Shown: positions 28 to 60,149 of the stretch, piece after piece
How the letters are laid out: each line of letters opens with the position of its first letter
How positions within the stretch are numbered: the stretch's first letter is position 1
The notes under the pieces: model-generated
The model's input: the letters and a program-made list of their open reading frames with translations, nothing else
What the model was told of the DNA's origin: nothing
Database searches by the model: none
Program-made: the position numbers and the translations under genes
Assembly: GCA_018335295.1 (NCBI GenBank)
Contig: JAGXKI010000001.1
Location: forward strand, 79,512 to 143,511
DNA from: a bacterium
Lineage (GTDB): Bacteria > Acidobacteriota > Aminicenantia > Aminicenantales > Aminicenantaceae
DNA length: 64,000 nt
Direction of reading: 5' to 3'

Positions 28-2043
28 ATGAGTATGAAAAAGATAAGTCTTCTTTTAATCCTTCTCTCGACTTGTTCATGCTCCCTGCATACCGCTTCTC
101 CCAGTGTTTACCCTACCGGCATCATTTTTCCTTTGGTGAAGACTCAAGAAGTGAATTATAAAGGAAAAATATTGAGTCCTATGAGGAGGGAAAAGAATCA
201 TCTGTATTTTTCTACAGTTCCAGGATATGTTTACTGTGTGGACTCAGAAAAGGCCCAAGTCATATGGACATACCAGGTTCCTGTAAGCTTGAAGAGTCCT
301 ACCTATCTAGGAAAAGAAAATCTGTATTTTGTAGGAAGCTCCAATACGCTTTACTGTATAGACCGTCAGGGTCAGTTTGTCTGGAAAAAGAAATTTGACC
401 AAACCATTACCAGCCCTCTCACTGTGGATTCCCGGAAGGTGTACCTGGGGACCGAAAAGGGGCAATTCTTTGCTCTGAAAGGGAAAGATGGAAGAGTTCT
501 CTGGAAATACCGGGCTGGGGGAGCCCTCCGCACTCAGTCTGTGGTCACCACGGACAAAGTGATTTTTGGTTGTGACAATGGAAGCCTTTATTTTTTATCT
601 CTCAATGGAAAGTTTTTGGGTAAAGATGAATTGAAGGAAAAAACAGCACCGACACTGAAAAAAGAGGATGAGATTCTTTATTTTGGTACCGAAGGGGAAC
701 ATATCTACAGTTACCATTTGAAAAAGCGAAGGGTGAGATGGGAAGTGGAACTGGGGAGTCCCAGTTACACTCCCCCTGTCATAAAAGGAAAAAGACTCTT
801 TTTTCTCTGCTGGAATGGGGTCCTCTACTGTCTGAATAAAAACAGTGGATCCATATTGTGGTGGAATACAGTGCCGGCCCGCAGTCATTACCGGTTGGAG
901 GTGGTGGAAGATAAAATTGTGGTCACTTCTCTTTCCAGCCGCCTGCTGTCTTTTGATATAAAAACGGGCAAGGAAACGGGTTATTTCGAGTTTCCCCAAG
1001 AAATCAAATCAAACCCTCTATGGAAGGCTCCCTGGTTAATGGTAAACCTCTATCTTGACCAGAGAGAGCAGGGAAAACTCTGGTTTTTGGAAAAATTAGT
1101 GAAAGTTTCTCTCTCTGCATCAAAGGAACCCCCCGGACATTTAGGGGAGCCGGTGGTTTTTTCTGCAAAGGGTACAGGCTTTTTCCGAGCTCAATACCGT
1201 TTTCGACTCACCCGTTATGGAAAGCTTCCGTTTGGATGGAATCATTTTATCCTGTTTAAAGATAAAGAGAAACAGATTGTGCAGGATTGGTCTGAAAAAA
1301 CTTCCTGGGAATGGGTCCCGGAGAAGGAAGGATATTACAAAATTCAGGTTGAAGTGAAAGATGAAAAAGAAAGAGCCGAAACAGAAATGAATTACTTTAT
1401 AGAGATGGAAAAACCTGGAGTATCCCTTCAAGCCTCTCAAGAGCCGCCTGTATGGATTGGAGATGAAATTGTATTTCAGGCCAAGTCTATAGCCCTCCAG
1501 GCCCCTCAGTATGAATTTTATCTGACTCCTTTGATAGAAATGAGATTGGGATGGATGGGTTATGTTTTTATGCCTCAGGAAGAGGAAAATTTGGTTCAGA
1601 AAAAGTCTGAAAAGAACTCCTGGAAATGGATTCCGCAGGAAGAAGGACTTTATTCCATCCGGGTAAAGGTAGTAGGTGAAGAAGGAAAGGCTGAGGAGAC
1701 CATAGGGTTGGCTGTAGAAAAGAAAGAACCTCAAGTAGAATTGAGTGCTTCTTCCAAGTCTCCTCAGGAGTTAGGAGTGAAAGTCAAGTTCACTGCCCAA
1801 GCCACTGGGTTTCAGAAACCTGTGTATGAGTTTTATCTTACCCCTTTAGTTCGGGTGACCTGGAGATGGGGTGGATTTTTGTTCCTTCCTTATAGAAAGG
1901 AAAAGCAAGTCTGGAAAAGTTCCCAAAAAAACTCCTGGCAATGGGTTCCTCCTGAAGAAGGGGCCTACCTGATTGAAGTGAAAGTCAAAGAAAAGGAGAT
2001 TCAGGCTGAAGCTAGGTCCTTGTTTTTGATAAAATCGGAATAA
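28..2043 (+). CDS. PQQ-like (BamB-type) beta-propeller lipoprotein with three C-terminal Ig-like/Y_Y_Y-type repeats
   Basis: N-terminal signal with Cys (LLSTCSC); repeated 'G.vY/Fcl...G...W' propeller blades; three ~105-aa tandem repeats, each ending in W.W.P.eEG.Y.I.V.V. Confidence 0.75.
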   Translation: MSMKKISLLLILLSTCSCSLHTASPSVYPTGIIFPLVKTQEVNYKGKILSPMRREKNHLYFSTVPGYVYCVDSEKAQVIWTYQVPVSLKSPTYLGKENLYFVGSSNTLYCIDRQGQFVWKKKFDQTITSPLTVDSRKVYLGTEKGQFFALKGKDGRVLWKYRAGGALRTQSVVTTDKVIFGCDNGSLYFLSLNGKFLGKDELKEKTAPTLKKEDEILYFGTEGEHIYSYHLKKRRVRWEVELGSPSYTPPVIKGKRLFFLCWNGVLYCLNKNSGSILWWNTVPARSHYRLEVVEDKIVVTSLSSRLLSFDIKTGKETGYFEFPQEIKSNPLWKAPWLMVNLYLDQREQGKLWFLEKLVKVSLSASKEPPGHLGEPVVFSAKGTGFFRAQYRFRLTRYGKLPFGWNHFILFKDKEKQIVQDWSEKTSWEWVPEKEGYYKIQVEVKDEKERAETEMNYFIEMEKPGVSLQASQEPPVWIGDEIVFQAKSIALQAPQYEFYLTPLIEMRLGWMGYVFMPQEEENLVQKKSEKNSWKWIPQEEGLYSIRVKVVGEEGKAEETIGLAVEKKEPQVELSASSKSPQELGVKVKFTAQATGFQKPVYEFYLTPLVRVTWRWGGFLFLPYRKEKQVWKSSQKNSWQWVPPEEGAYLIEVKVKEKEIQAEARSLFLIKSE

Positions 2044-2070
2044 ATAAAAAAAGAGAAAGGAGAAAAAAGC

Positions 2071-2616
2071 ATGAAAAGAGAAGAAGCGTTTCAACTGGTC
2101 CAAAAGCATCTTAAGAACAAAAATCTGATCAAACATTCTTTAGCCGTGGAGGCCTGCATGAGGGCTGTGGCGGAAAGATTGAACAAAGATGTCCAAAAGT
2201 GGGGATTGACGGGTCTTTTGCATGACCTGGATTATGAGATGACCGAAAAGAGTCCCGAACGTCATACCGATGAGACCGTGAATATTCTCAAGGATGAGGA
2301 TGTGGACCCCGAAATCCTCCGGACCATTCAGGCTCATGCAGGGAAGGTTTCCTGCGAGAGTGAGATGGAATGGGCTATTTATTCCATTGACCCATTGACA
2401 GGGTTGATTGTGGCGGCTACCTTAATGCATCCTAGCAAAAAATTGAAGGAAGTGGACCTGGATTTTATCAAAAGAAGATACAAAGAAAAAAGTTTTGCCC
2501 GGGGAGCCAAGAGAGAAGATATCGAACAGATAAAAAATATCGGGATGGACTTGGATGAGTTCATTTCTATCTGTCTGAAGGCCATGCAGGGGATCCACAA
2601 GGAATTGGGTTTGTGA
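2071..2616 (+). CDS. HD/HDIG-domain metal-dependent phosphohydrolase
   Basis: KHSLAVE...GLLHDLDYE...H motifs; KSFARG C-terminal motif. Confidence 0.85.
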   Translation: MKREEAFQLVQKHLKNKNLIKHSLAVEACMRAVAERLNKDVQKWGLTGLLHDLDYEMTEKSPERHTDETVNILKDEDVDPEILRTIQAHAGKVSCESEMEWAIYSIDPLTGLIVAATLMHPSKKLKEVDLDFIKRRYKEKSFARGAKREDIEQIKNIGMDLDEFISICLKAMQGIHKELGL

Positions 2617-2891
2617 GCAGAGAAGAAGAATTTTTTCTTCCATCCGCTGAAAATCCCGGAGTAGGTGGGTCTAAGGATGGGATTTTTAAAGAAGGAAAGC
2701 TTTTTATGGATTCTTTTATTTGAACGGGAAAGGGATGAGATCGTGTGTATAAATTTAATGCACTCCACTTTGATTTAAGTTATAATGAAACGACTTAGGA
2801 TAAAGTGGTGTCAATTTGAATGGAGATTTGATAATCTTAAAAAAGAATATTTCAAACTAAAAACTCAATATTATAAAAGGAGGTCATTACC

Positions 2892-4520
2892 ATGAACAGC
2901 ATTGTAAAGGTTCCACTTCCGAAAAATGAACCTTTGAATAGTTACGCTCCAGGAACTCCCCAGCGTGAATCTTTGAAAGAAAAGATGAAAGAGATGCTGG
3001 ATCAAGAAATTGAAATACCCTTGCTCATCGGGGGAAAGGAGGTCAAGACAGGAGACCTTGCAGACTGCCGTTGTCCTCATGACCACAAGCACCTTTTAGG
3101 CAAGTACCACAAAGCAGGACCCAAAGAGATAGAGATGGCAGTGAAAGCAGCCAAAGAGGCATGGAAAGAATGGTCAGAGATGGATTGGTTAGACCGAGCT
3201 TCTATATTCCAGCGGGCTGCTGAGTTTTTATCCAAAAGATATCGGGATACCATCAATGCGGCTACAATGCTGGGACAGTCCAAAACAGCTCATCAAGCAG
3301 AGATTGATTCAGCGTGTGAATTGATTGATTTTGTCCGTTTCAACCTCCACTACATGAGTCACATTTTTTCCCAGCAGCCTTCTTCGCCCACGGGAATCTG
3401 GAATTATGTGGATTACCGCCCTCTGGAAGGGTTTATATTTGCGGTCAGTCCTTTTAATTTCACTTCCATAGCCGGAAATTTACCCAGCGCCCCCGCCATG
3501 ATGGGAAATACTGTTTTGTGGAAGCCCGCATCTTCGGCTGTTTTTTCAGCTTACTATATCGCTCAAGTGTTCAAAGAAGCAGGACTTCCGGATGGAGTGA
3601 TTAATTTTGTTCCGGGTTCGGGTCGATATGTGGGAGATCCCATTTTGGAAAAACCGGATTTGGCTGGAGTTCATTTTACGGGAAGTACTTCGGTATTTCA
3701 GTCTATGTGGAAAACCATCGGAGACAATATCAAAAATTACTGGACTTATCCGCGAATTGTTGGAGAGACAGGAGGGAAAAATTATGTGTTTGTTCATCCC
3801 TCAGCGGATTTGGACGAGGTGGTTACCGCGGTCATCCGGGGAGCTTATGAATATCAAGGTCAGAAGTGCTCGGCAGTGAGCCGGCTTTATGTTCCCTCCA
3901 ACCGTTGGGAAACCTTCAAGCAGAAGTTATTGGATGAAATAAAAACAGTCAAAATGGGAGATCCCATGGATTTCACCAATTTTGTGAACGCTGTGATCGA
4001 TAAAGGGGCTTTTGATTCCATTACAGAGTTTATTGATTACGCCAAGGAATCCAATGAATCGGAAATCATCCACGGAGGAAATTATGATGATTCCAAAGGC
4101 TATTTTATTGAGCCTACTGTGGTGAAGGTGACCAATCCCAGACACAAATTGATGGAAGAAGAAATTTTTGGCCCTGTACTCACAATCTATGTCTATCCTG
4201 AAGATGAATTCAAAGAAACCTTAGAATTGTGCAACAAGACCTCTCCTTATGGGTTAACCGGGGCTATTTATGCCACCGACAGAAAAGCCATTGCGGAAGC
4301 GGGAAAAGCTCTCCGGCATTCAGCAGGAAATTTTTACATCAACGATAAACCTACGGGAGCTGTAGTCAATCAGCAGCCTTTTGGAGGAGCCAGGGCTTCA
4401 GGGACCAATGATAAAGCAGGATCGTTCTTGAATCTGGTTCGATGGATCAGTACTCGAGCCATTAAGGAAAACTTAAATCCTCCTAAAAACTATAGATACC
4501 CTTTCATGGAGGAAAAATAG
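2892..4520 (+). CDS. pruA: L-glutamate gamma-semialdehyde (1-pyrroline-5-carboxylate) dehydrogenase
   Basis: NEP..Y.PG, QAEIDSACELIDF, PFNFTSI, GETGGKN, EYQGQKCSA, GNFYINDKPTGAVV.QQPFGG.R.SGTNDKAG; RBS AGGAGG. Confidence 0.93.
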   Translation: MNSIVKVPLPKNEPLNSYAPGTPQRESLKEKMKEMLDQEIEIPLLIGGKEVKTGDLADCRCPHDHKHLLGKYHKAGPKEIEMAVKAAKEAWKEWSEMDWLDRASIFQRAAEFLSKRYRDTINAATMLGQSKTAHQAEIDSACELIDFVRFNLHYMSHIFSQQPSSPTGIWNYVDYRPLEGFIFAVSPFNFTSIAGNLPSAPAMMGNTVLWKPASSAVFSAYYIAQVFKEAGLPDGVINFVPGSGRYVGDPILEKPDLAGVHFTGSTSVFQSMWKTIGDNIKNYWTYPRIVGETGGKNYVFVHPSADLDEVVTAVIRGAYEYQGQKCSAVSRLYVPSNRWETFKQKLLDEIKTVKMGDPMDFTNFVNAVIDKGAFDSITEFIDYAKESNESEIIHGGNYDDSKGYFIEPTVVKVTNPRHKLMEEEIFGPVLTIYVYPEDEFKETLELCNKTSPYGLTGAIYATDRKAIAEAGKALRHSAGNFYINDKPTGAVVNQQPFGGARASGTNDKAGSFLNLVRWISTRAIKENLNPPKNYRYPFMEEK

Positions 4521-11166: not shown

Positions 11167-13833
11167 TTATTTTTTCTTTTTTTTCTTTTTTCTTTTTTTA
11201 GGGATGACTGACCTTGCTTCTTTCATTCGGTGAGGGGATTGATGAGGAGTGGGAGGTGGTTGAGTTGGGGATGATTGAGTGGGAGATTGGACCGGAGACT
11301 GAGGATTTTGGTGTTGGAAGTTCATGGGCTGCTCTTTTTTTTGGGGGAATTCTTCTTCCACAGTGGGTTGAAGAAGATACAGGTAACGGATGGTTTCTTC
11401 CTCGATGCGGTCCATCATTTGCTGGAACATTTCATAACCTTCTTTTTTGTATTCCACCAGAGGATCTCTTTGGCCATATCCCCGGAGACCGATGCCTTCT
11501 TTCAAGTAATCCATCCCTAGGAGATGGTCTTTCCATTGGGAATCAATAATTTGGAGCATGAGGATTCTTTCAAATTCTCTCATTTGTTCAGAACCCAAAA
11601 TGCTCTCTTTTTCTTGGTATATATCCTTTAAAGAAGAGAGGACTTTTTCTCTCAATCCATCATAGGTGATAGAGTCCCAATCTATGTTGAGTTCATAGAT
11701 ATTCAAGCCGAATTGGGCCTCCACGGTGTTTTTAAATCCCTTTACATCCCAGTCTTCGGGAGGTTTTTCTTTAGAAGTGTGATTTTCCATCAGCCAGTCC
11801 ACCAGAGTGACCACTAAATCCTGGATGTACTGCTCCATATTCTTGCCGCTGAGGATGTCTTTCCGCAGCTTGTAGATGGTTTGACGCTGTTTATTCATTA
11901 CATCGTCATATTCCAGGAGATGTTTCCGTATAGAAAAGTTCTGAGATTCAACCTGATTTTGAGCCCGTTCGATGGCCCGGGTGACCATATTGTGTTGAAT
12001 AGGCACGCCTTCTTCCACTCCGATTCTCTGCATCAATCCAGATATTCTTTCGCTACCAAATATCCGCATCAAGTCATCTTCAAGAGAAAGATAAAACCGT
12101 GAGGAACCCGGATCTCCCTGTCTGCCCGCTCTCCCCCTAAGCTGATTGTCGATACGGCGCGCTTCATGCCTCTCTGTACCAATAACATGCAAGCCACCCA
12201 GTTCCACCACTTTTTTATGTTCCATCTCGGTGATTTTTTTGGATTCTTTGTATGTGCTCTCCCATTCTTCCGGGGAAGCTTTTTCAGGATCGATCCCTTT
12301 TTTCTGGAGTGATTCCCAGGCCAAATACTCGGGATTTCCACCCAGGAGAATATCCACTCCGCGACCAGCCATATTGGTGGCAAGAGTCACAGATCCCACT
12401 CTTCCCGCCTGGGCGATGATCTGGGCTTCCATTTCATGATATTTTGCGTTCAAGATCACATGCTTAATTCCCTTTTTTTTCAAAAGAGAGCTGAGGTGTT
12501 CGGAGTTTTCTATAGAAGTGGTTCCTACTAGGAGTGGGCGGCCTTTCTGATGGAGCTCAGAGATTTCCTCTACCACAGCATTCCACTTTTCCCTGGCAGT
12601 CCGGTAAATGGAGTCCGGATAATGGTACCGGATGAGAGGTTTATTGGTGGGAATAACCACCACATCCAGATTATAGAGAGATTGGAATTCAGTGGCTTCC
12701 GTCTCAGCGGTTCCGGTCATTCCTGCGAGTTTATCATACATCCGGAAAAAATTCTGGAAGGTCACGGAAGCCAAGGTCTGATAATCTTCTTCGATGCGAA
12801 CATTTTCCTTGGCTTCAAGGGCCTGGTGAAGCCCGTCACTGTACCTTCTGCCTGGCATCAGTCGGCCTGTAAATTCATCCACAATGATGACCTTTCCATT
12901 CTTGACCATGTAATCCTTATCTTTTTTAAATAAGTTGTGAGCTTTAAGAGCCTGGTTGATAGTATGGATGAGGTCCACGTGGGAAAGGTCAAAAAGATTT
13001 TGAATCCGAAGATATTTTTCGGCCTCTGAAACTCCTTCTTCAGTCAGAAAAACCGTCTTGGTTTTCTCATCAATTTGAAAATGTTTATTATTGCTGAGCC
13101 TTTTGACTAGGTTGTTGACCTTGTAGTAAATGGATGTGGATTCTTGAGTAGGCCCAGATATGATAAGAGGGGTCCGGGCTTCATCTATCAATATGCTGTC
13201 CACTTCATCCAGGATGGCAAAGTGATGCTGAGGTTGGACAAGGTCGGCCAGGCTGAATTTCATATTATCCCGAAGATAATCAAAGCCAAATTCATTATTG
13301 GTTCCGTAAGTGACCGCTTTCCTATAGGCTTCTTTTCTCTGGGCATCGTTCATTTCATGCTGAATGGTCCCCGCTTCCATTCCCAGGAGATTGAACACAG
13401 GGCCCATCCACTGGGTATCTCTTTTGGCTAAATAGTCGTTGACGGTGACGATATGTACACCCTTTCCTGTCAGAGCATTGAGATAAGAAGGAAGGGTAGC
13501 TACCAGAGTTTTTCCCTCCCCTGTTTTCATCTCGGCGATTTTTCCCTGATGGAGGGCCACTCCTCCCAGCAGCTGAACATCAAAAGGACGCATGTGAACA
13601 GTTCGACGGGCTGATTCGCGGACCACGGCAAACGCTTCAATCAGAATATCCTCTAGAGAAGCCCCTTGATTGAGCCTTTCTTTAAACTCGGAAGTTTTTT
13701 GTTTGAGCTGTGAATTATCGAGCTTCTGGATTTGAGGCTCCAGCTCGTTGATGGCAGGGATGTAGGGTTGGAGTTTTTTCAGGTCTCTCTCATTTTTTGT
13801 TCCGAATATTTTTTGAATCAGCCATCTATACAT
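11167..13833 (-). CDS. secA: Preprotein translocase ATPase
   Basis: [60 protein letters not shown]. Confidence 0.98.
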
Positions 13834-57588: not shown

Positions 57589-57661
57589 GCGGGTATAGCT
57601 CAGTTGGTAGAGTACGAGCTTCCCAAGCTCGGGGTCGCGGGTTCAAATCCCGTTGCCCGCT
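57589..57661 (+). tRNA. tRNA-Gly (anticodon CCC); CCA not encoded
   Basis: Cloverleaf: GCGGGTA/TGCCCGC acceptor, AGTTGGTA D-loop, CGAGC-TT-CCC-AA-GCTCG, GGTTCAAATCC; TTGACA promoter at 57495. Confidence 0.97.
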
Positions 57662-57785
57662 CTTTTTTTATTTTTCCAATTATCTTTATAAATTAAGAAA
57701 TAATGATGAAATTCAAGAGATATTTTTTAGGAGTTTATTCCACAAATGGGATAAATCCTGGAATGAAACCATTTCTTTCGCCGGT

Positions 57786-58214
57786 TTATTTTTCCAGTTT
57801 GTCTAAGAAATCATCCACTTGGCGGATATATTCTTTATAATCAGAGAAGGCTATCGATAAAGTCCCATAGACTTTTCTGTCGTCTATATCCATGTATTCA
57901 TGGACGATGATATTTCTCATCCCTCCCGAACCTTTCAATTTGTTGGCCAGCTCCTGATCAATGAGTCCTACTTCGGCAGCTTTTAAAAAGGATGAGGTGT
58001 AATCTTCCGGAGGCCGTTCTCCAGATTCCAGTACCACATGAGTGTTGATATCGGAGGCCCACTCCACGATCAACTGGATCAACCTTTCTGCAGAAGTTTT
58101 TTTATAGAAATCAGAGACATATTCGTTGAATGTGGAATCAGCGATGGGCTTGAGTTTATCCAGGTACATATTGAGTCGAGAAAGCTTTCTCCTTACCAAT
58201 TCTGAATTTATCAT
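57786..58214 (-). CDS. DUF86/HepT-like HEPN toxin
   Basis: ERL.Q..VE...DI, P.DY..SF, RNIIVHEY. Confidence 0.9.
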   Translation of the reverse strand: MINSELVRRKLSRLNMYLDKLKPIADSTFNEYVSDFYKKTSAERLIQLIVEWASDINTHVVLESGERPPEDYTSSFLKAAEVGLIDQELANKLKGSGGMRNIIVHEYMDIDDRKVYGTLSIAFSDYKEYIRQVDDFLDKLEK

Positions 58215-58618
58215 GGTTGTATCTTTCCCAGGGCCTTTTTTATGTACAATTTTTCCATCTGTCTAAATTTCTTTGAATCCATGTACCGGGCCACAGCTTG
58301 AATTCGGAATCGTTGAAAGTTTCCCTTTTTTTCTTCATACAAAGCCTTCCCGTTTACAGCTACCTGGTAGGTGATGAGAGGTTCTGCTCCATTGAGGAAG
58401 ACCGGATCAAATTGGCTGCCGAATACTTCGCTGAATTCATTTATCATATTGAGTTGGGTCTTCAAATCAAACTTTTTCCGGCCTAGGATTCCAATATCTA
58501 TGTCACTCTGGTCCCTTGGATGACCCTGTGCAAAGGACCCATGCAAAATGAGCAATTGAATATGGTATTTCTGGCAGAGTCTATTTAATCTTTGTTTGTT
58601 GATTTTTAAGTTTCTCAT
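58211..58618 (-). CDS. Minimal nucleotidyltransferase (MntA-like antitoxin)
   Basis: HGS-x10-DID, D.V.LN; 4-nt overlap with the HEPN gene. Confidence 0.88.
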   Translation of the reverse strand: MRNLKINKQRLNRLCQKYHIQLLILHGSFAQGHPRDQSDIDIGILGRKKFDLKTQLNMINEFSEVFGSQFDPVFLNGAEPLITYQVAVNGKALYEEKKGNFQRFRIQAVARYMDSKKFRQMEKLYIKKALGKIQP

Positions 58619-58833
58619 TTGATTTGCTTTTTAAGATTATATCACAAATGCTTTTTTAAATAAGGTAGAATTTGGCTCTTTCCCACCAAATCCCTGCTCA
58701 AAGGCTGCTAAGTAGAGGAGTTTGGGTTAATTTTTTTCAACGTAAGTTACAGAAACGGAATCTCTATTTTGATTGAAAATTGGGGTAAGGAAAAGTTGAA
58801 AAAATGTGGACTAGAAAAATAGTAAAAAATTTA

Positions 58834-58862
58834 TTGACAGGAAAGGGGTTGAAACCTATATT
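58834..58862 (+). promoter_or_regulatory. Near-consensus sigma70 promoter
   Basis: TTGACA(58834)-17-TATATT(58857), with an A-rich upstream tract. Confidence 0.7.
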
Positions 58863-58869
58863 CCTTAAT

Positions 58870-59001
58870 GGTGGGTGGCAGAACCACAGATCAAATATCG
58901 GTTCCAGGTCCTTGTTCCGAAGCGTCAGATCTTACTTAAAAAGTATGAATGCGGATTATCCGCAGCGCTCTGACCTGCATGGAACGCCGCCCACCCTTTT
59001 T
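58870..59001 (+). ncRNA. Candidate structured non-coding RNA (~130 nt), family not recognised
   Basis: 10-bp closing helix GGTGGGTGGC/GCCGCCCACC starting at the predicted +1, internal helices, U-tract. Confidence 0.6.
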
Positions 59002-59348
59002 CATTACCAAAATTTTTATTACCAAAAGCGTGCCAAAAAGTATATCAAAAAGGGGTCAGGTCCGGCCATTTCTTTTCAATAATTTAACCTGAGTTTTCCA
59101 CAGATTTGGGGCCAAAAATCGAGGTTTTTGGGGCCAAAAAACGCGTATATTCCTCCTTTTTTCTGTGTAAAAGTACTACTAATATCTTATAATAAAATAA
59201 TTGGCCGGGCTCATTCCCATTAATTAGAACCGTCCCCATTAATTGTTAATCCTGAATTTTGAGTGGAGAGGGATTTCCTGTAAAATAAGAAAATCAATTT
59301 AGACGTAACTTTCAGAAATGATCGATTCCATCGGAGGATGAAACAGAT

Positions 59349-60149
59349 ATGCAAAAGAGCAACTCAAAGTGGTATCTTCTTTTGGACAGGGAGCCGTTGG
59401 AAGGCTCCTGGAATATGGCTGTCGATGACTACCTGTTCCGGACCCTGGAAGAAAAACCCTTAACCTATGTCCGGTTCTACAGATGGGAAAGGCCCACGAT
59501 TTCCCTAGGGTATTCCCAGAAAGTTTCCCGGGTAGTCAACCTCCCTTACTGCCAGCAGAATGGAGTGGACATTGTCCGGAGACTCACCGGCGGGAAATTG
59601 GTATTGCACAACAAAGAGGTGACGTATTCAGTTTGTTCTTCAGATGGGGATACCTTCACTTCCACCCTCAAAGGTTCTTATAAAAGAATCTCCAAGGCTT
59701 TGATGGAGGGATTGAAAAGGATGTCCCTGGATCCCTATCTGGCCGATGCCCCGCCTGTTTCTTATGTGCGGGGGACCATGCCCTGCTTCTCTTACCCTGC
59801 CCGCGACGAGATTGAAATCCAGGGAAAAAAGATGATCGGAAGTGCCCAAAAACGTTTGGGTCCAAAGTTTGTCCAGCACGGGTCCATCCCTCTCCAGGAA
59901 GAGGAGGAGCTTCTCAGGTCCGTCACGTTTCTGGAAGAGAGAAAAGACGTAGTGCGGGTCATTTCCATTTCCCGGGCCTTAGGAAAGACAGTCCGCTTTG
60001 ACTGGGCTGTGGACCATTTCATAAAGGGTTTTGAAGATTATTTTGGTATCCAACTGGAACCCAAAGAATTCAATGAGGAAGAAAAAGAGAGGATCCGACA
60101 AATTCAACGAGACCGTTATGAAAACGATGATTGGACTTACGGGAAATAA
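59349..60149 (+). CDS. Lipoate-protein ligase family (LipM/LplA-like)
   Basis: NMAVD, RFYRW..PTISLG, VRR.TGG..V.H, K..GSAQ, QHGS. Confidence 0.9.
   Translation: MQKSNSKWYLLLDREPLEGSWNMAVDDYLFRTLEEKPLTYVRFYRWERPTISLGYSQKVSRVVNLPYCQQNGVDIVRRLTGGKLVLHNKEVTYSVCSSDGDTFTSTLKGSYKRISKALMEGLKRMSLDPYLADAPPVSYVRGTMPCFSYPARDEIEIQGKKMIGSAQKRLGPKFVQHGSIPLQEEEELLRSVTFLEERKDVVRVISISRALGKTVRFDWAVDHFIKGFEDYFGIQLEPKEFNEEEKERIRQIQRDRYENDDWTYGK

Follow-up and report, generated by a model that had tools for sequence, protein, structure and literature searches.

We analyzed a 64,000-nucleotide (nt) stretch of bacterial DNA (assembly GCA_018335295.1, contig JAGXKI010000001.1, positions 79,512 to 143,511 of the forward strand), referred to here as the window. 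Positions 58870 to 58995 of its plus strand hold an element that, judged from its sequence, is best read as a stand-alone gene for a stable, small non-coding RNA of a family absent from Rfam 15. We consider it very probable that this is a genuine new family of structured RNA genes; its double-pseudoknot core is kept almost letter for letter in anaerobes of at least four to five phyla. The fuller statement, namely, that this new stand-alone structured RNA acts in trans and that its knotted core binds a conserved partner, is one that we favor on balance. An earlier note on this DNA had proposed a stand-alone, promoter-defined structured RNA at this site, and this part of its interpretation is supported. 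The features of the element in the window are as follows.

58834-58839, plus strand: −35 hexamer TTGACA of a near-consensus promoter with a 17-nt spacer
58857-58862, plus strand: −10 hexamer TATATT, giving the promoter 11 of 12 consensus positions in total
about 58868-58870, plus strand: transcription start, inferred from the position of the promoter
58870-58995, plus strand: body of the RNA, about 126 nt (predicted transcript about 58868-59001; class size about 127 nt)
58997-59001, plus strand: TTTTT, a terminator-like T-tract following the closing helix P1, as seen in the sequence

The earlier note had reported the promoter, a 10-bp closing helix with a U-G pair followed by a T-tract, a GC-rich block inside an AT-rich spacer, and a distance of about 350 nt to the next plus-strand gene, and all of these were found where it had placed them. 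The −10 hexamer is separated by 7 nt from the first G of P1, which is the commonest spacing among the homologues. The closing helix pairs GGTGGGTGGC (58870-58879) with GCCGCCCACC (58986-58995) and includes one U·G pair (58876/58989). The G+C content amounts to 52% in the RNA block, compared with 32% and 35% in the flanking spacers, and the next plus-strand gene, for an LplA-like ligase, starts at 59349. The plus strand folds with −49.9 kcal/mol (z = −4.28), and none of 200 shuffled sequences was as good; for the minus strand, z was −3.04, and 2 of 200 shuffles were as good. Five promoter-like sites were detected in the region, no more than shuffling would lead one to expect (3.1 ± 1.8); what speaks for the promoter is thus how good this one site is, where it lies, and that it is conserved in homologues. 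A covariance model (R1), built from four sequences (the window copy and relatives), scores the window copy at 129.5 bits over positions 58868 to 58998, and this is the single copy in a genome that is 93% complete.

The fold was scored in alignment A3, which contains 74 model-aligned sequences (73 distinct) of what we term subtype 1; a second subtype is described below. The scored structure has 41 pairs in six nested helices (P1 to P6) and two crossing helices (Pa and Pb), which in the window are located as follows.

58870-58879, plus strand: 5′ strand of P1, pairing with 58986-58995; 98.6% of cells paired
58884-58886, plus strand: 5′ strand of P2 (CCA), pairing with 58980-58982; weak in the window copy
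58888-58892, plus strand: 5′ strand of the pseudoknot helix Pa (AGAUC), pairing with 58928-58932
58898-58901, plus strand: 5′ strand of Pb (UCGG), pairing with 58917-58920; Pb encloses the 5′ strand of P3
58905-58910, plus strand: 5′ strand of P3 (CAGGUC), pairing with 58972-58977
58917-58920, plus strand: 3′ strand of Pb (CCGA), supported by subtype 2
58921-58924, plus strand: 5′ strand of P4 (AGCG), pairing with 58966-58969
58928-58932, plus strand: 3′ strand of Pa (GAUCU), supported by covariation and subtype 2
58933-58945, plus strand: P5 hairpin (UACUU/AAGUA), variable and dispensable; both scored pairs covary
58950-58964, plus strand: P6 hairpin (UGCGGA/UCCGCA), showing only G-C to G-U changes in subtype 1
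58966-58969, plus strand: 3′ strand of P4 (CGCU), supported by changes in locus L024 and subtype 2
58972-58977, plus strand: 3′ strand of P3 (GACCUG), supported by covariation and subtype 2
58980-58982, plus strand: 3′ strand of P2 (TGG in the DNA); the window copy keeps 3 bp
58986-58995, plus strand: 3′ strand of P1, carrying the U·G pair 58876/58989

The strands thus follow one another in the order P1, P2, Pa, Pb, P3, Pb′, P4, Pa′, P5, P6, P4′, P3′, P2′, P1′. Pa and Pb cross P3 and P4, and the fold is therefore read as a double pseudoknot on a P1-P2 rod. Covariation in homologues, which the earlier note had put forward as a check, was assessed in A3: standard pairs occupy 98.1% of 2,918 cells, compared with 35 to 50% when the partners are slid by 1 to 3 columns; double-sided changes were found at 19 of the 41 pairs (212 cells); and none of 500 shuffles matched the observed value on any of five covariation measures. 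The pairs with double changes include 6 of 9 in P1, 4 of 4 in P2, 3 of 6 in P3, 2 of 2 in P5, and 3 of 6 in Pa. Two of the Pa pairs switch between U-A and C-G, the ratios being 56:17 and 39:33 sequences, and changes in P3 include the replacement of C-G by G-C in 11 sequences. The A-U pair of P4 becomes G-C in L024 and in every subtype 2 sequence examined. Pb is invariant within subtype 1, partly since the pattern used in the search (see below) fixed its 3′ strand, and P5 is absent from 4 of the 73 distinct rows (L046, L052, L054, and L061).

Not all helices listed in the earlier note are part of this fold. Its CAGGTC/GACCTG, AGCG/CGCT, TACTT/AAGTA, and TGCGGA/TCCGCA helices are conserved in the homologues and correspond to P3, P4, P5, and P6, respectively. 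A GAACC/GGTTC helix and the two competing helices GTTCCA/TGGAAC and GTCAGA/TCTGAC are not conserved and are peculiar to the window sequence. As to the last of these, the variable base of GUCAGA covaries with the upstream AAGAUY strand, and UCUGAC is invariant. The idea of two alternative folds held insofar as two crossing sets of helices exist; since both are conserved, the comparison of sequences points to their coexistence as a pseudoknot. In the window sequence, two nested subsets of helices were calculated to be nearly isoenergetic (−38.3 and −37.9 kcal/mol), and with such near-equal modeled energies the two sets may alternate there as a switch.

Subtype 2 comprises loci L107 to L112 and L140 to L145 and was found only by covariance model searches. 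Its helices compare with those of subtype 1 as follows.

Pa: AAGAUY/RAUCUU in subtype 1; GUCC/GGAC in subtype 2
Pb: UCGG/CCGA in subtype 1; ACCGGGA/UCCUGGG or UCGGG/CCCGA in subtype 2
P3: CAGGUC/GACCUG in subtype 1; CGGGU/GCCCG or AUGU/ACAU in subtype 2
P4: AGCG/CGCU in subtype 1; GGCG/CGCC in subtype 2
P6: UGCGG/CCGCA in subtype 1; UCCUG/CAGGA in subtype 2

Every core helix is thus rewritten yet predicted to pair, which is independent comparative support for the fold. The joining segments (AAGUA, UCA, UAAU, and the A before P4) are near-constant across both subtypes, and P5 is also missing from some subtype 2 sequences. The six subtype 2 loci inspected have promoters and no adjacent T-tract, and in four of them the downstream gene is convergent; several subtype 2 loci sit between an RdgC-like gene and a convergent gene for a class V aminotransferase. 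A degraded subtype 1 copy with many broken pairs (35 bits) was noted in genome G204 (contig C280, L113/L119, at about 6037 to 6165 of L119). It lies in the usual context of genes for a DinG-like helicase and a LysM protein, and the same genome also carries subtype 2 in intact form (L107); a replacement of one subtype by the other may have taken place there.

The ends and the strand of the RNA were assessed in the homologues. A promoter was counted when a sigma-70-like site scored at least 9 of 12, its −10 hexamer ended 6 to 9 nt before P1, and at least 45 nt of upstream sequence were available. By these criteria, 52 of 71 distinct homologues have a promoter, the hexamers and spacers of which drift while the position holds. 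A T-tract, defined as a run of at least four T or at least six T in the 10 nt after P1, directly follows P1 in 46 of the 70 distinct homologues with downstream sequence. G·U pairs are frequent, occurring, for example, in 27 and 29 sequences at two pairs of P6, and these pairs together with the direction of the promoter identify the plus strand as the transcribed one. A small protein-coding open reading frame (ORF) was rejected as an explanation, given that stops are present in all three plus-strand frames in 31 of 72 distinct sequences, that the lengths (117 to 138 nt) differ by non-multiples of three, and that the substitutions in the helices are compensatory.

A BLAST search of 61 related genomes, which had been suggested along with the prediction, retrieved clear homologues from three genomes (G027, G042, and G043), in each of which a separate TTGACA/−10 pair lies shortly before GGTG; a fourth match, of 19 nt in G011, is probably due to chance. 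The homologue of G043 (contig C18, L005/L023, about 11400 to 11520) contains a run of N inside the 3′ part of the RNA with about 50 bases repeated on both sides. This is a scaffolding artifact and not a second copy, and it accounts for the two pieces retrieved by BLAST. Model R1 was run on 151 genomes from each of two orders and detected the RNA in 9 from the window's own order and in 15 from the order to which G160 belongs (of these 15, nine at 120 to 131 bits and six at 35 to 52 bits); a further model, R2, found it in 8 of 151 genomes of the phylum of G160. An exact core pattern of two blocks with 23 fixed bases matched 72 loci in a collection of one genome per species (185,579 species) and at least 120 metagenome contigs. 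According to their record titles, these 72 loci belong to Desulfobacterota, Planctomycetota, Verrucomicrobiota/Kiritimatiellia/Lentisphaerae, and Aminicenantes/Acidobacteriota, with several candidate phyla represented singly; some titles are unreliable, and phylum counts based on them need care. For instance, L053 (Desulfobacterales) and L067 (Latescibacterota) have near-identical flanks under different phylum titles, and six of eight contigs apparently of the window's Aminicenantes order are titled Eubacteriales or Clostridiales (L038, L046, L054, L061, L078, and L095). The evidence of long contigs and complete chromosomes is sufficient to establish at least Desulfobacterota, Planctomycetota, Kiritimatiellia/Verrucomicrobiota, and Aminicenantes as carriers. 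All 72 pattern loci originate from metagenome-assembled genomes, with no cultured carrier among them, and the hosts are almost entirely uncultured anaerobes of sediments and seeps. Carrier genomes other than that of the window contain one to three copies, with two or three in a few of them. In the part of the literature that we consulted, the list of host taxa resembles that of the mercury-methylating (hgcAB) anaerobes; this is a by-product of the literature search and is mentioned as a lead only.

The RNA could not be assigned to a known family. In Rfam 15, the window element has no match at the gathering score, and at E values of up to 10 the only overlap within 58700 to 59350 is a minus-strand match of 13.9 bits, for which the threshold is 114; the homologues of both subtypes have no match either. 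The earlier statement that no known family is recognizable thus holds for the window copy as well as for the subtype 1 and subtype 2 loci. None of the self-cleaving ribozymes in Rfam (hammerhead, twister, hepatitis delta virus [HDV]-like, pistol, hatchet, and glmS) was detected over 58700 to 59350 at E values of up to 10 or in the homologues at E values of up to 0.1. Among tRNA and transfer-messenger RNA (tmRNA) genes, Rfam finds only the tRNA at 57589 to 57661, and ARAGORN predicts no gene at the element in 60 homologous loci. RNA of the signal recognition particle (SRP; RF00169 and RF01854) and 6S RNA (RF00013) were detected neither at the element nor anywhere in the window's genome, and they were therefore the first suspects. 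SRP RNA was rejected, as the carriers G027 and G042 hold canonical RF00169 on other contigs (66.7 and 62.8 bits), and so was 6S RNA, as four of five carriers from other phyla (G159 to G162) have a canonical 6S RNA elsewhere (58.9 to 81.3 bits). The label "6S-like" used in the earlier note is consequently dropped; apart from these separate 6S RNAs, the fold has no central bubble of the 6S type. Y RNA with Rsr was rejected because the window's genome, at its 93% completeness, has no match to TROVE/Ro60 (PF05731). Furthermore, the presence of the RNA in less than 10% of the genomes of two orders makes a housekeeping RNA unlikely. Several resemblances to known motifs, spotted by eye and supported by no tool, were dropped, namely, 5S rRNA words (CCGAA and GUAGCGC), a k-turn at the P1/P2 junction, a hammerhead CUGA/GAA core, and the guanidine-III word GUCAGGAC. 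As a separate observation, 6S RNA (RF00013) was not found in the window's genome (G000) or in five genomes of its order (G027, G037, G039, G042, and G043), two of which are single contigs; it may be that the 6S RNA of the window's Aminicenantes order has diverged too far to be recognized by the Rfam model. As for SRP RNA, four relatives have it, and G000 and G043 do not, probably because of assembly gaps.

Comparison with known systems delimits the family further. The raiA-motif and OLE RNAs are likewise stand-alone genes with wide conservation, complex folds, and a genomic context that offers no functional clue; in contrast, the window family is much smaller (about 127 nt), has a double pseudoknot on a P1-P2 rod, and occurs in other taxa, namely, anaerobic Desulfobacterota, the Planctomycetota/Verrucomicrobiota group, and Aminicenantes. 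Riboswitch aptamers with pseudoknotted cores share the covarying helices around near-invariant joints, the closure by P1, and the U-tract seen in about two-thirds of the family, whereas the window family has no coherent class of downstream genes, a promoter fixed at the foot of P1, no visible expression platform, and no match to an Rfam riboswitch. Like 6S RNA, it is a promoter-defined, abundant-looking small RNA with paired ends, but it is shorter (about 127 nt, compared with about 185 nt), its core is pseudoknotted where 6S RNA has an open central bubble, and its distribution is patchy. Small SRP RNA (4.5S, RF00169) is similar in size and in its closed ends, but the window family lacks the GNRA-capped domain IV hairpin and is present in less than 10% of related genomes. 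Finally, the Y RNAs that associate with Ro60/Rsr likewise have a terminal stem that is closed and conserved in sequence (GGUG/CACC), and they too occur patchily across phyla; the window family differs in that its genome encodes no TROVE protein and in having neither an Rfam match to Y RNA or YrlA nor a tRNA-like module.

Full-text literature searches and motif-discovery papers, a scope that did not extend to supplements and some journals, contained no description of the window RNA. The claim of novelty is limited, since it rests on Rfam 15 and these literature searches. New widely conserved classes of structured RNA are now rare, and earlier ones have led to riboswitch ligands, ribozymes, and RNA-protein machines. 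At about 127 nt, including a dispensable hairpin, this RNA is small enough for direct biochemistry and structure determination, and the covariation that supports its fold is unusually clean and extends to a second subtype in which every core helix is rewritten. Its hosts are almost all uncultured anaerobes of sediments and seeps, in which RNA biology is unexplored. Models R1 and R2 and alignments A3 and A4 can be used to annotate the family and to search for a partner by phylogenetic profile.

The genes surrounding the RNA do not form a common context. ORF clustering around 74 and then 154 loci (140 distinct) revealed no widespread neighbor, the largest cluster being present at 11 of the 154 loci, and a Pfam analysis of the 126 nearest neighbors of 72 loci gave a heterogeneous set. 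It includes helicases (RecD2, DinG-like, and UvrD), UvrC, HU, ferritin, a cation efflux protein, MscS-type channels, restriction/modification enzymes, Fic, RhuM, zeta toxin, HepT/MNT, one reverse transcriptase, and one IS110 transposase. The only recurring set consists of mntP, the RNA, and genes for a GFO/IDH/MocA oxidoreductase, a 3-keto-disaccharide hydrolase, and ThuA, and was found in one family of Aminicenantes; genes related to the mntP-oxidoreductase-ThuA set are also near two Planctomycetota copies. We read this as lineage synteny plus chance, as these gene families look common in the loci examined. A tRNA gene was present within the available flanks at 4 of 60 loci. Nearest neighbors of the HepT or MNT type were found in the window and at 3 of the 72 other loci (L054, L086, and L097), a rate that, by a rough estimate of our own, is near chance given how abundant this module is. 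The link to the MNT-HEPN module, which the earlier note had called speculative, is therefore not general. The lack of a conserved neighbor argues against a riboswitch as well as against an obligate link to HepT-MNT.

We regard as shown the gene itself, its conservation, its fold, its independence from the neighboring genes, and its distinctness from SRP RNA, 6S RNA, and all Rfam families; the ends of the transcript, the action in trans, and the binding of a partner are inferred. The reading that we favor is as follows. Transcription would start at the RNA's own sigma-70-type promoter, at the foot of P1, and P1 with the U-tract would probably also terminate the transcript in about two-thirds of the family members. 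The 5′ and 3′ ends are clamped in a long P1-P2 rod. On this rod sits a compact core, about 90 nt in size, where P3 and P4 interlace with Pa and Pb; the dispensable P5 hairpin and the P6 hairpin are attached to it. A conserved cellular partner, which could be a protein or a small molecule, may bind specifically to a surface or pocket of the folded core, and the RNA would act in trans rather than by pairing with mRNA or controlling a downstream gene. Conserved single strands that are long and accessible are lacking, and the nucleotides that stay constant lie in the junctions of the core, which makes the binding of a partner likelier than pairing with mRNA; the same lack of a long conserved single strand, combined with that of a conserved neighbor gene, makes action in trans the most likely mode. 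That the family represents an undescribed functional class with its own biochemistry, be it a stand-alone ligand-sensing aptamer RNA or a new ribozyme fold, is conceivable and at present rather doubtful.

A number of points weigh against this reading. (i) Invariance is partly built in, since 72 of the 74 rows of A3 were collected with a search pattern that prescribes 23 bases; the support for Pb, P4, and part of P3 therefore comes mainly from subtype 2 and L024. (ii) A3 was fitted to a model whose structure derives from four member sequences. (iii) The window's own P2 has only 3 bp, and its minimum-energy fold (the −49.9 kcal/mol given above) uses helices that are kept by no homologue. (iv) About one-third of subtype 1 lacks the T-tract, as do all six of the inspected subtype 2 loci, and the transcript and its ends are predicted features. 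(v) A same-strand ORF begins within 150 nt in about 26 of the approximately 62 subtype 1 loci with enough downstream sequence, and read-through may regulate downstream genes. (vi) None of the results bears directly on the proposed action in trans or on the binding of a partner.

Of the competing explanations, a cis-acting riboswitch or leader would have the ligand-bound core stabilize the terminator formed by P1 and the U-tract, with read-through into the downstream gene when the ligand is missing. Its conservation pattern would be much like the one observed, with constant joints, covarying helices, and a pseudoknotted core, and the T-tract directly after P1 at 46 of 70 homologues would fit, as would the many loci that have a same-strand gene with a plausible ribosome-binding site 15 to 130 nt downstream; in addition, the same kind of GFO/IDH/MocA oxidoreductase gene lies downstream in one Aminicenantes family and at one Planctomycetota locus. 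We nevertheless regard a riboswitch as unlikely. The downstream genes have no functional theme in common; among their products are ferritin, UvrC, HU, MscS-type channels, Fic, RhuM, a nitroreductase, a homocysteine methyltransferase, and an SGNH-like hydrolase. According to the nearest-neighbor assignments, at many subtype 1 loci and four of the six inspected subtype 2 loci the downstream gene is convergent or there is none. In the window, the next gene is 350 nt away, and no separate expression platform is visible. A ribozyme that processes itself or acts on another substrate, with the double pseudoknot as the active site in the manner of HDV-like, glmS, and twister ribozymes, appears less probable still. 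The compact double-pseudoknot topology and the joining nucleotides that are near-invariant across phyla are compatible with catalysis, as are the heterogeneous genomic contexts, which are usual for small self-cleaving ribozymes; against this stand the lack of a match to any Rfam ribozyme family at E values of up to 10, a helix order that is unlike that of HDV, glmS, and twister, the number of one to three copies per genome, and the placement of both ends at P1 by promoter and T-tract, which leaves nothing obvious to cleave.

A divergent housekeeping or ribonucleoprotein RNA (SRP 4.5S, 6S, or Y RNA) missed by the Rfam models is largely refuted and would now be a great surprise. What had spoken for it was the closed-end rod, which recalls these RNAs, and the window's genome without an Rfam match to SRP or 6S RNA, together with the lack of a 6S RNA in five genomes of the order. 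The canonical SRP RNAs of G027 and G042, the canonical 6S RNA in four of five other-phylum carriers, and the lack of a TROVE/Ro60 gene in the window's genome speak against it; 9 and 15 of 151 genomes in two orders are too patchy a distribution for SRP or 6S RNA, and the fold has neither a GNRA-capped domain IV nor a central bubble. Equally little credence can be given to a mobile or repeat element with chance-pairing ends, such as a miniature inverted-repeat transposable element (MITE), an integron attC site, or an integration target. P1 does amount to terminal inverted repeats, the neighbors are often of the island type (toxin-antitoxin and restriction-modification), and in the window the RNA is part of an extra segment of about 1.4 kb that separates tRNA-Gly from lplA, two genes that are neighbors in all five relatives examined. 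Many dispersed copies, which the earlier note had named as the mark of a repeat element, were not seen, the RNA being present once in the window's genome and at most three times in any genome. The core pattern had no match in 2.9 million viral contigs, a BLAST search of the window RNA against 72,556 plasmid records gave no match, and neither target-site duplications nor end motifs of the attC type were seen at the window locus. Subtype 2 occupies a stable housekeeping context (RdgC-like and aminotransferase genes). The internal and crossing helices show compensatory changes, and the promoter keeps its position while its sequence drifts; each of these is a mark of selection on a transcript.

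As regards the history of the family, phylum labels cluster on the RNA tree (24 changes, compared with 41.6 on average after shuffling). The resolution of this tree is poor, stars being assigned to 5 of 70 inner branches. A single Aminicenantes clade was not rejected by the approximately unbiased test (p = 0.60 and 0.67). The RNA tree is too short to resolve this history, and we therefore make no claim of horizontal transfer beyond a patchy distribution and an unstable location.

In the window, the genes around the RNA are arranged as follows.

57589-57661: tRNA-Gly(CCC) gene, upstream of HepT-MNT, identified by Rfam
57786-58214, minus strand: HepT gene, upstream neighbor
58211-58618, minus strand: MNT gene, upstream neighbor
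from 59349, plus strand: LplA-like ligase gene, the next plus-strand gene

In five of five relatives of the same family examined, tRNA-Gly(CCC) is located about 5 to 390 nt upstream of lplA. The corresponding distance in the window is 1.7 kb, and HepT, MNT, and the RNA are located in this gap, which includes about 1.4 kb of extra DNA; the segment from 57589 to 59349 looks like a small insertion hot spot beside a tRNA gene. An imperfect 30-nt direct repeat (57719-57748 and 58621-58650; 70% identity), both copies of which end in CACAAATG, brackets the HepT-MNT pair, with the RNA outside the bracket, and may mark the boundaries of the toxin-antitoxin cassette. Two short tandem repeats were also noted in the spacer that follows the RNA, namely, TTTT(C/T)ATTACCAAAA present twice (58998-59027) and TTTGGGGCCAAAAA(T/A)CG present twice (59105-59143). 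Positions 59052 to 59207, which include the second of these repeats, resemble the tRNA-lplA spacer of the relative G001 (73 to 78% identity) and are probably ancestral spacer rather than insert. Among the 72 pattern loci scanned, a single one (L051, Planctomycetota) has a neighboring gene for a 730-amino-acid protein with an RVT_1 reverse transcriptase domain (1424-3613), located 335 nt upstream of the RNA on the same strand.

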